Source: a virus
Lineage: Duplodnaviria > Heunggongvirae > Uroviricota > Caudoviricetes
Length of the DNA stretch: 6,983 nt
Direction: 5' to 3' (one strand)
IMG/VR virus record: IMGVR_UViG_2711768011_000013
The notes under the pieces were generated by a model, which saw only the letters and a list, made by a program, of their open reading frames with translations, did not search any database and had not been told where the DNA came from. The translations under genes and the position numbers were made by a program. Below are positions 4,238 to 4,783 of this stretch, piece after piece (within the stretch, counting starts at the first letter, position 1; every line of letters starts with the position of its first letter).

Positions 4238-4783
4238 TCAGGAAGAACCTTCCGGAGAGACGGACCATTCAATGGCGTTATATGAGGATTTATCAGTGAT
4301 GGTGCTGAAATCCATCGCCTGCAGCGATTTCGCGTAAATACGGTACGCTTTCAGTTTTTCCCGGTCTTCGTCGCTGATTAGCCCCAGCAGCAGGTCTTCT
4401 TCCCATTCCCCTGTCCGGGCACTGACCTGAGCCAGAAGGGCATCACGCTCATCTTCCGCTTTGAGTCTGTAGTCAAAGACAAATTCATCATTGCGGTAAA
4501 ACCAGTAACCCGGCGCGGTAATGCGGCGGTTGGCGGTAATATCAGGAACTTCAATAACACTGGCGTTACGGGGTTCAATGCCTGTCACATCCTTACCGAC
4601 CCACACCACGCGCCCGTCTCCGGTGTAAACCATTTTTATGGTGTCACTGGCAAAGTTCTTCTGTTCTTCATACCAGTTTTTGCCGTCTTCCGAAAAAAGC
4701 CAGGTGACATCATACTGTTTTGTCAGCTGATATTATTCCGCGGTTTTCGGATTACCTGCCGTAATATTTTTTAAATGCAACAT
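4238..4783 (-). pseudogene. Tail fibre assembly protein (P2 gpG / Tfa family) inactivated by an in-frame nonsense codon
   Basis: From ATG 4783-4781 the frame reads [58 protein letters not shown]...EVPDITANRR..., colinear with the P2 gpG-type N-terminus recalled from memory ([44 protein letters not shown]...VEVPDITSNRR). The TAA at 4735-4733 replaces the Gln (CAA) codon at position 17. The track's 131-aa ORF (4238..4633) is the remnant from an internal Met. Confidence 0.75.

Follow-up and report, generated by a model that had tools for sequence, protein, structure and literature searches.

The tail-fibre assembly (tfa) gene of the prophage DNA studied here appears to stop after 16 codons. This raises the question of whether the gene is really broken and, if so, whether a useful product could still be made from the rest of its frame. 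The window, i.e. the whole stretch of 6,983 nt that was analysed, carries tfa on the minus strand at 4238-4783, and translation gives a tail-fibre assembly chaperone of the Mu gpU / P2 gpG type with 181 codons and a stop. Read from 4783, the minus strand runs ATG TTG CAT TTA AAA AAT ATT ACG GCA GGT AAT CCG AAA ACC GCG GAA TAA: the ATG at 4783-4781 opens a run of 16 sense codons, which ends at a premature ochre TAA at codon 17 (4735-4733, minus strand). The residual 16-codon ORF (4736-4783, minus strand) has the same N-terminus as intact homologues. Past the TAA the frame stays open for 164 more codons, up to a TGA at 4240-4238. The altered base is A at 4735 on the plus strand, where relatives have G, and the site lies outside any homopolymer run (GGAATAATAT). 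The tfa ATG lies 2 nt past the TAA stop (4788-4786) of the upstream tail-fibre gene on the same strand, which is the usual coupled arrangement, and the order fibre-tfa is identical across all related loci. An earlier note on this DNA had described a tfa gene disabled by a lone nonsense codon; on re-reading, CAA to TAA at codon 17 was indeed the one break in a frame otherwise open for 181 codons, and the positions given for the ATG, the TAA (4735-4733) and the first later ATG (4633, codon 51) were all correct. Without an uninterrupted frame for the full protein, tfa is a pseudogene of the Caudo_TAP family and not a working member of it.

The locus belongs to a Shigella sonnei prophage remnant, in which it forms the distal part of a Mu-like contractile-tail module. 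The tail-fibre gene that Tfa serves (4786-5826, minus strand, 346 aa) is intact, its exact protein being present on at least 1000 contigs (Q3YYQ6 in S. sonnei Ss046). This fibre has the same length as that of L016, a locus with unbroken tail-gene calls, and gives a weak match to gp37_trimer (Pfam). Upstream of it are an intact baseplate gene of the Mu Gp48 / YmfQ family (5813-6403, minus strand; PF10076, 89.6 bits) and a 3' fragment of a baseplate J gene (Mu gp47-like; 6403-6900, minus strand), which matches the C-terminal part only of Pfam Baseplate_J. On the other side of tfa lies a second intact fibre gene (2946-4214, minus strand, 422 aa) with a prophage tail fibre N-terminal domain (PF08400, 212.6 bits). 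It is followed downstream by a DUF4376 gene (2161-2995, minus strand; PF14301 in contig L004) that is broken by a run of N. Convergent with the tail genes is ipaH (266-1981, plus strand), which encodes a 571-aa effector with LRR_TTSS and NEL E3 ligase domains (Pfam); the exact protein is present in complete S. sonnei genomes. Between DUF4376 and ipaH we also noted a 59-aa ORF (1982-2161, minus strand) with a weak match to Caudo_TAP (E 0.0013, profile positions 66-98), which is probably a leftover of another tail-fibre assembly gene.

We used several comparisons to place the broken gene in a family. With Gln17 restored, the protein matched Pfam Caudo_TAP (PF02413) with 87.7 bits over residues 40-178, against a cut-off of 22.1 bits; a 131-aa ORF within the frame was also tagged PF02413 in precomputed tables. 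The structure of phage Mu gpU (5YVQ_B) aligned with an E-value of 8e-39 (query 1-158 against chain 1-164), and the motif M-HLKNI--NPKT-EQYQLTK, Q17 included, is common to the restored protein and Mu gpU. Since the Caudo_TAP match reaches 87.7 bits and the Mu gpU alignment begins at residue 1, tfa is not a chance ORF. In tblastn searches of phage genomes, U or U' of Mu, D108, SfMu, P1 and P7 aligned from query residue 1 with approximately 50% identity, while P2-type G proteins aligned from the same residue with 83-88% coverage and 42-48% identity. The colinearity with P2 gpG-type proteins that had been proposed therefore holds, with Mu U slightly closer than P2 G.

The likeness to Mu U and to the U/U' proteins of D108, SfMu, P1 and P7 extends from residue 1 to about residue 160 and includes the N-terminal motif with Q17. 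As in Mu, tfa comes directly after the fibre gene, in a Mu-type baseplate module (Gp45, GP46, baseplate J, Gp48). The differences from Mu are that codon 17 is a stop here, that the extreme C-terminus after about residue 160 is unrelated to Mu U, and that an invertible G-segment arrangement is absent; what follows on the same strand is a second fibre gene (PF08400) and DUF4376. P2 gpG (Peduovirus), which from the composition of the family we take to belong to the same Pfam family as tfa of the window, is slightly more distant than Mu U, and the tail module here is Mu-like, not P2-like. A DNA search of the phage collection found no close relative; the best match, a record with an Actinobacillus phage label, had 89% identity, and phiP27 covered only 56% of the query. 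The tfa region of Actinobacillus pleuropneumoniae phage vB_Apl-pPE4 (PP818812.1) showed 89% DNA and 87% protein identity, which is unexpectedly near to the Shigella/E. coli gene for a phage with a Pasteurellaceae host label.

Alignment to intact relatives identified the base change. Three E. coli homologues aligned to a 651-nt query at 99.4%, 97.7% and 92.6% DNA identity; codon 17 was CAA in all three, with T against C as the sole difference at the codon. The closest intact allele differs from tfa of the window by this one base, in agreement with the single C-to-T change that had been suggested from the sequence. In E. coli FDAARGOS_944, where the region is 99.4% identical over the 651-nt query, tfa is annotated as an intact gene of 546 nt, and the surrounding block reads GP46, baseplate J, YmfQ, fibre, tfa, PF08400 fibre, DUF4376 and ipaH. 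Intact orthologues are found in E. coli/EIEC and in other Shigella (WP_000902847.1 of FDAARGOS_944, ABB65619.1 of S. boydii and a protein in public data, P0016), with 98-100% protein identity and the same neighbours: Gp48, fibre, tfa, PF08400 fibre and DUF4376, often followed by ipaH. They differ from the window in having CAA at codon 17 and a protein of 181 aa. The ancestral allele was intact.

A protein database search with the Q17-restored sequence retrieved 119 cluster representatives at 85-98% identity. Gln17 was present in all 116 homologue clusters that span the position, and a stop or gap-flanked break at position 17 was found in none of these 116. Residues 1-19 were near-invariant among the clusters, and 108 of the 119 had the full length of 181 aa, so homologues do not begin downstream of the stop. 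The shorter homologues that we inspected, from S. flexneri, were partial records, carried a lesion of their own or were annotated short over an open frame. A 162-aa 'Tfa' of S. flexneri was considered as a homologue with a genuine downstream start and rejected; it stems from a choice made in annotation, the frame being open (strain 2457T), or from a frameshift of its own.

These alignments also bear on the idea that ribosomes pass the TAA by design, through programmed readthrough or recoding or with the help of a suppressor, so that full-length Tfa is made at a low level. Low-level ochre readthrough occurs in E. coli generally, and nothing specific to this gene speaks for the idea. Programmed readthrough is at odds with the homologues, where position 17 is a stop in 0 of 116 clusters, and with the intact allele one mutation away, which has CAA. 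We give this reading a negligible probability.

The nearest intact allele is P0016, which equals the protein of the window with Q17 restored as the sole change and was found on 18-21 contigs. Most of these contigs hold other prophage variants: among the ten P0016 places listed, two (L021 and L023) lie in an S. sonnei-type context. Both contigs are 99.9% identical to the window over approximately 3.1 kb, with tfa differing at 4735 alone and 2-3 other mismatches in the whole alignment. With Y allowed at the variable base, an exact-pattern scan of a contig collection in which each species is represented by a single genome matched no copy.

We then considered the reality of the stop. The earlier note had left room for a sequencing error, in which case the true base would be C and the gene intact in the source isolate. 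The window is a scaffolded draft, and its run of 227 N matches only 16 nt in relatives, which counts in favour of an error. The T itself was nonetheless identical in 29 independently made assemblies: TAA was found in 29 of 29 S. sonnei-type loci that were read, complete genomes included. Ten of these are contigs assembled from separate sequencing runs (read-derived Logan assemblies), all ten with TAA; this sample was picked via the 131-aa truncated ORF (AAZ89357.1). A second sample was picked blind to tfa, via the exact proteins of the neighbouring fibre genes (9 places via the 346-aa and 10 via the 422-aa fibre). TAA was present in all 19 fibre-retrieved places listed, with 34 further similar places beyond these; approximately 15 of the 19 are chromosome-scale, S. 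sonnei Ss046 (CP000038) included.

Counts of records agree with these samples. ORFs that depend on the stop are on record for more than 1,700 contigs, though such counts may include GCA/GCF duplicates or one assembly annotated twice. The intact protein of the same haplotype is on 18-21 contigs, against at least 1000 for a 162-aa form that begins beyond the stop. A CAA at codon 17 in this haplotype was looked for, and the other assemblies did not have it. With the same T in all 29 assemblies (approximately 15 chromosome-scale and 10 read-derived), with stop-dependent ORFs on so many contigs and at a site that is not homopolymeric, a sequencing or assembly error can be rejected as extremely unlikely.

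Within the tail module, inside baseplate J, the window ends in an insertion sequence. The last 83 nt (6901-6983) are the terminal part of IS1 (GGTGATGCTGCCAACTTACTGAT...), and the same sequence is found at other IS1 copies in L025, L026 and L033. Alignment to the IS-free E. coli loci L001 and L016 ends at 6900, and in the gene calls of L025 and L026 the baseplate J gene is split by IS1. Complete S. sonnei genomes carry another IS1 in this module, next to its tape-measure gene. The junction at 6900/6901 is identical in the CAA-bearing contigs L021 and L023 (GCA_900159285.1 and GCA_900158265.1), with a gap-free alignment across it. Because these contigs have CAA and the same junction, IS1 would have come before the stop; this order assumes that the identical junction was inherited and that the site was not hit twice. 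It is very likely, judging from the sequences compared, that the prophage was already defective when the tfa stop arose. The T at 4735 and the IS1 junction at 6900/6901 form a pair of markers that separates the main S. sonnei haplotype from its rare CAA-bearing relatives.

Taken with the base change, these data lead us to regard tfa, with high confidence, as a genuine nonsense pseudogene in a defective S. sonnei prophage with a Mu-like tail, where the stop arose after IS1 by neutral decay. We propose that IS1 split the baseplate J gene of the tail module in a common ancestor, and that one C-to-T transition then turned Gln17 (CAA) into an ochre codon. Translation from the fibre-coupled start would end after 16 residues, which would make a full-length chaperone impossible. 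Since IS1 had already split baseplate J, the stop would have fallen on a gene that was no longer useful, and the allele could have become near-fixed in clonal S. sonnei by drift or hitch-hiking rather than by selection. Decay in the manner of Shigella, as the earlier note had it, fits an IS1-cut S. sonnei prophage remnant with the stop in every S. sonnei-type copy examined. The word 'recent' in that note stands in one sense, as the stop appears later than the IS1 insertion, and fails in another, as the S. sonnei copies on record are by now essentially fixed for it.

The near-fixation of the stop could also be taken to mean that loss of Tfa was selected for, e.g. to stop the production of folded fibres or tailocin-like particles. 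The TAA allele is essentially fixed in S. sonnei-type copies, and the orthologous tfa of S. flexneri has been broken independently (a 1-nt deletion in an A6 run), and this might be taken for convergence. Neither point requires selection. S. sonnei is a young clone, in which fixation without selection is possible. Relatives that bear CAA have a broken baseplate too, so the tail module had lost its function before the stop arose, and both fibre genes are still intact. Under neutrality, dead prophage genes should decay in parallel, and the youth of the clone means that fixation needs no selection (PMC7373316). We consider selected loss very unlikely and neutral decay the better account.

Records in the databases present the broken gene as something else. 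Among the records read, it was given in three inconsistent ways, each time as an ordinary protein, and a pseudogene flag was absent. The most frequent form (162 aa, on at least 1000 contigs on record) starts at CTG codon 20 (4724-4726, minus strand) and corresponds to NCBI calls in complete S. sonnei genomes. A 123-aa form that starts at GTG codon 59 (4609-4607, minus strand) is on 773 contigs, and a 131-aa form that starts at ATG codon 51 (4631-4633, minus strand) is on 16 (AAZ89357.1 of Ss046; UniRef Q3YYQ5). In L024 and L026 the gene call runs from the CTG (11101-11589) and in L025 it covers 11218-11589. The lesion is hidden because annotation pipelines call the CTG or GTG start, and gene-content or pseudogene counts for S. 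sonnei that are based on such annotations will miss it.

We asked how credible these restarts are as translation starts, taking the predicted pairing energy with the 16S rRNA tail as the measure of SD strength. CTG is a very rare initiator codon, and here it has a weak SD (-3.5 kcal/mol). ATG51 has no SD (-0.2 kcal/mol). GTG59 is preceded at 8 nt by GGAG (4621-4618; the whole element spans 4607-4621, minus strand) with -6.6 kcal/mol, compared with -6.1 for the fibre gene and -8.0 kcal/mol for the Gp48 gene. Among the internal starts, GTG59 alone has a credible ribosome-binding site, and some truncated protein could be made from it.

Whether such a protein would work depends on the N-terminal domain. 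PMC9608196, with reference to the Mu Tfa structure, describes binding of the fibre by the N-terminal domain of TfaMu, with contributions from helices alpha1, alpha3 and alpha4; the same source assigns trimerisation to the C-terminal helical region. An AlphaFold model of Tfa, built with 34 homologues, had a mean pLDDT of 71 and was confident for helices 105-132 and 138-155. Values of approximately 50-60 in the N-terminal domain make the model a rough map of secondary structure there, and residues 1-103 are only roughly informative. In this part it has a strand at 8-10 and a helix at 15-24 that holds Q17; strands and one short helix make up the rest, as far as residue 103. By order, the modelled helix 15-24 probably corresponds to alpha1 of TfaMu. 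With the same low confidence, a restart at codon 20 would remove the first strand and half of the first helix, and one at codon 51 or 59 approximately half of the fibre-binding domain. The restart products of 162, 131 and 123 aa are probably non-functional because part of the fibre-binding N-terminal domain is missing.

Against this background we weighed the proposal that a working, N-terminally shortened chaperone is made from CTG20 (162 aa), ATG51 (131 aa) or GTG59 (123 aa). Gene callers do report the restart ORFs, the GGAG before GTG59 is as good a site as that of the fibre gene, and the C-terminal helical region 105-155, linked to trimerisation in PMC9608196, is retained and confidently modelled. 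Homologues, however, do not start at the restart codons, as seen from the 108 of 119 full-length clusters and from near-invariant residues 1-19. The restarts would remove 1-3 strands and 1-2 helices of the N-terminal domain, in the low-confidence region of the model, ATG51 has no SD, and the tail to be served cannot assemble with baseplate J split by IS1. A working short chaperone is very improbable on this evidence. The product from the internal Met at 4633 that the earlier note had raised is possible in principle but unlikely, with its missing SD (-0.2 kcal/mol) and approximately half of the fibre-binding domain gone.

A different role for the GTG59 product may be imagined, in which the 123-aa fragment has been retained as a dominant-negative chaperone that acts against fibre assembly of incoming related phages. 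If so, a fragment that keeps the C-terminal trimerisation region and has lost most of the fibre-binding domain would be a cheap barrier to superinfection. We regard this as highly improbable, and a neutrally decaying pseudogene as the preferred reading.

The scaffolding of the window was examined separately. The run of 227 N (2338-2564) corresponds to 16 nt (GCTCCACGCCATATGT, plus strand) in E. coli L001, in Ss046 (L026) and in the Logan contig L004. With so short an interval in these relatives, the N mark a scaffold gap whose size was estimated, rather than a mask that keeps the true length. The position of the gap coincides exactly with the point of divergence between two DUF4376 paralogues. 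In the complete S. sonnei genomes examined, the tail module abuts smpB and has a different DUF4376 C-terminus (92.6% identical), and an identical ipaH belongs to another prophage remnant, close to yebU/copCD. CP023645 is the sole genome with coordinates for both, and there ipaH is approximately 1.5 Mb from the tail module. In the ipaH remnant of the complete genomes, an IS3-family element is inserted at a site that matches position 2053 of the window. A single short contig, L004, has ipaH joined to tail genes in the manner of the window. That ipaH and tail genes are linked over the gap may reflect a strain variant or a scaffold join between the DUF4376 paralogues. The tfa finding is unaffected by this doubt because 2565-6983 is 99.95-100% identical to the smpB-side copies.

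Two minor features of this region were also seen. At sites 2623 and 2648 of the DUF4376 gene, S. sonnei copies that otherwise agree in full are variable: the window, L004 and L054 have T/G, most complete genomes have C/A, and L028 has T/A; this variation may reflect gene conversion between the DUF4376 paralogues. At the other edge, window positions 1-107 match the end of an IS3-family element (transposase with HTH_Tnp_1 and rve) at 100% identity; the element lies beside ipaH in complete S. sonnei genomes and is found again in other parts of those loci.

In biological terms the finding is a minor one: it adds a further point pseudogene, in a prophage remnant, to a pathogen whose genome is known to decay, and the kind of event is already well known. 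Shigella genomes are recognised to degrade through nonsense mutations and through the expansion of IS1 (Hawkey et al. 2020, PMC7373316). The locus described here likewise combines an IS1 insertion with a nonsense mutation, in one dispensable gene cluster, while the study by Hawkey et al. concerns genome-wide, mainly metabolic, gene loss and, as far as we know, does not treat this prophage gene; the word 'prophage' is absent from the main text of PMC7373316.

A parallel to this decay is the independent tfa lesion in another Shigella species. In the complete S. flexneri genomes CP058589, CP102215 and CP102230 (L041, L042 and L045; 5944-6000), tfa carries the 1-nt deletion in the A6 run at codons 4-6, and the three frameshifted genes are annotated from Met20. 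In S. flexneri 2457T (L043/L044) the tfa frame is open from Met1, and both copies are annotated as 162 aa.
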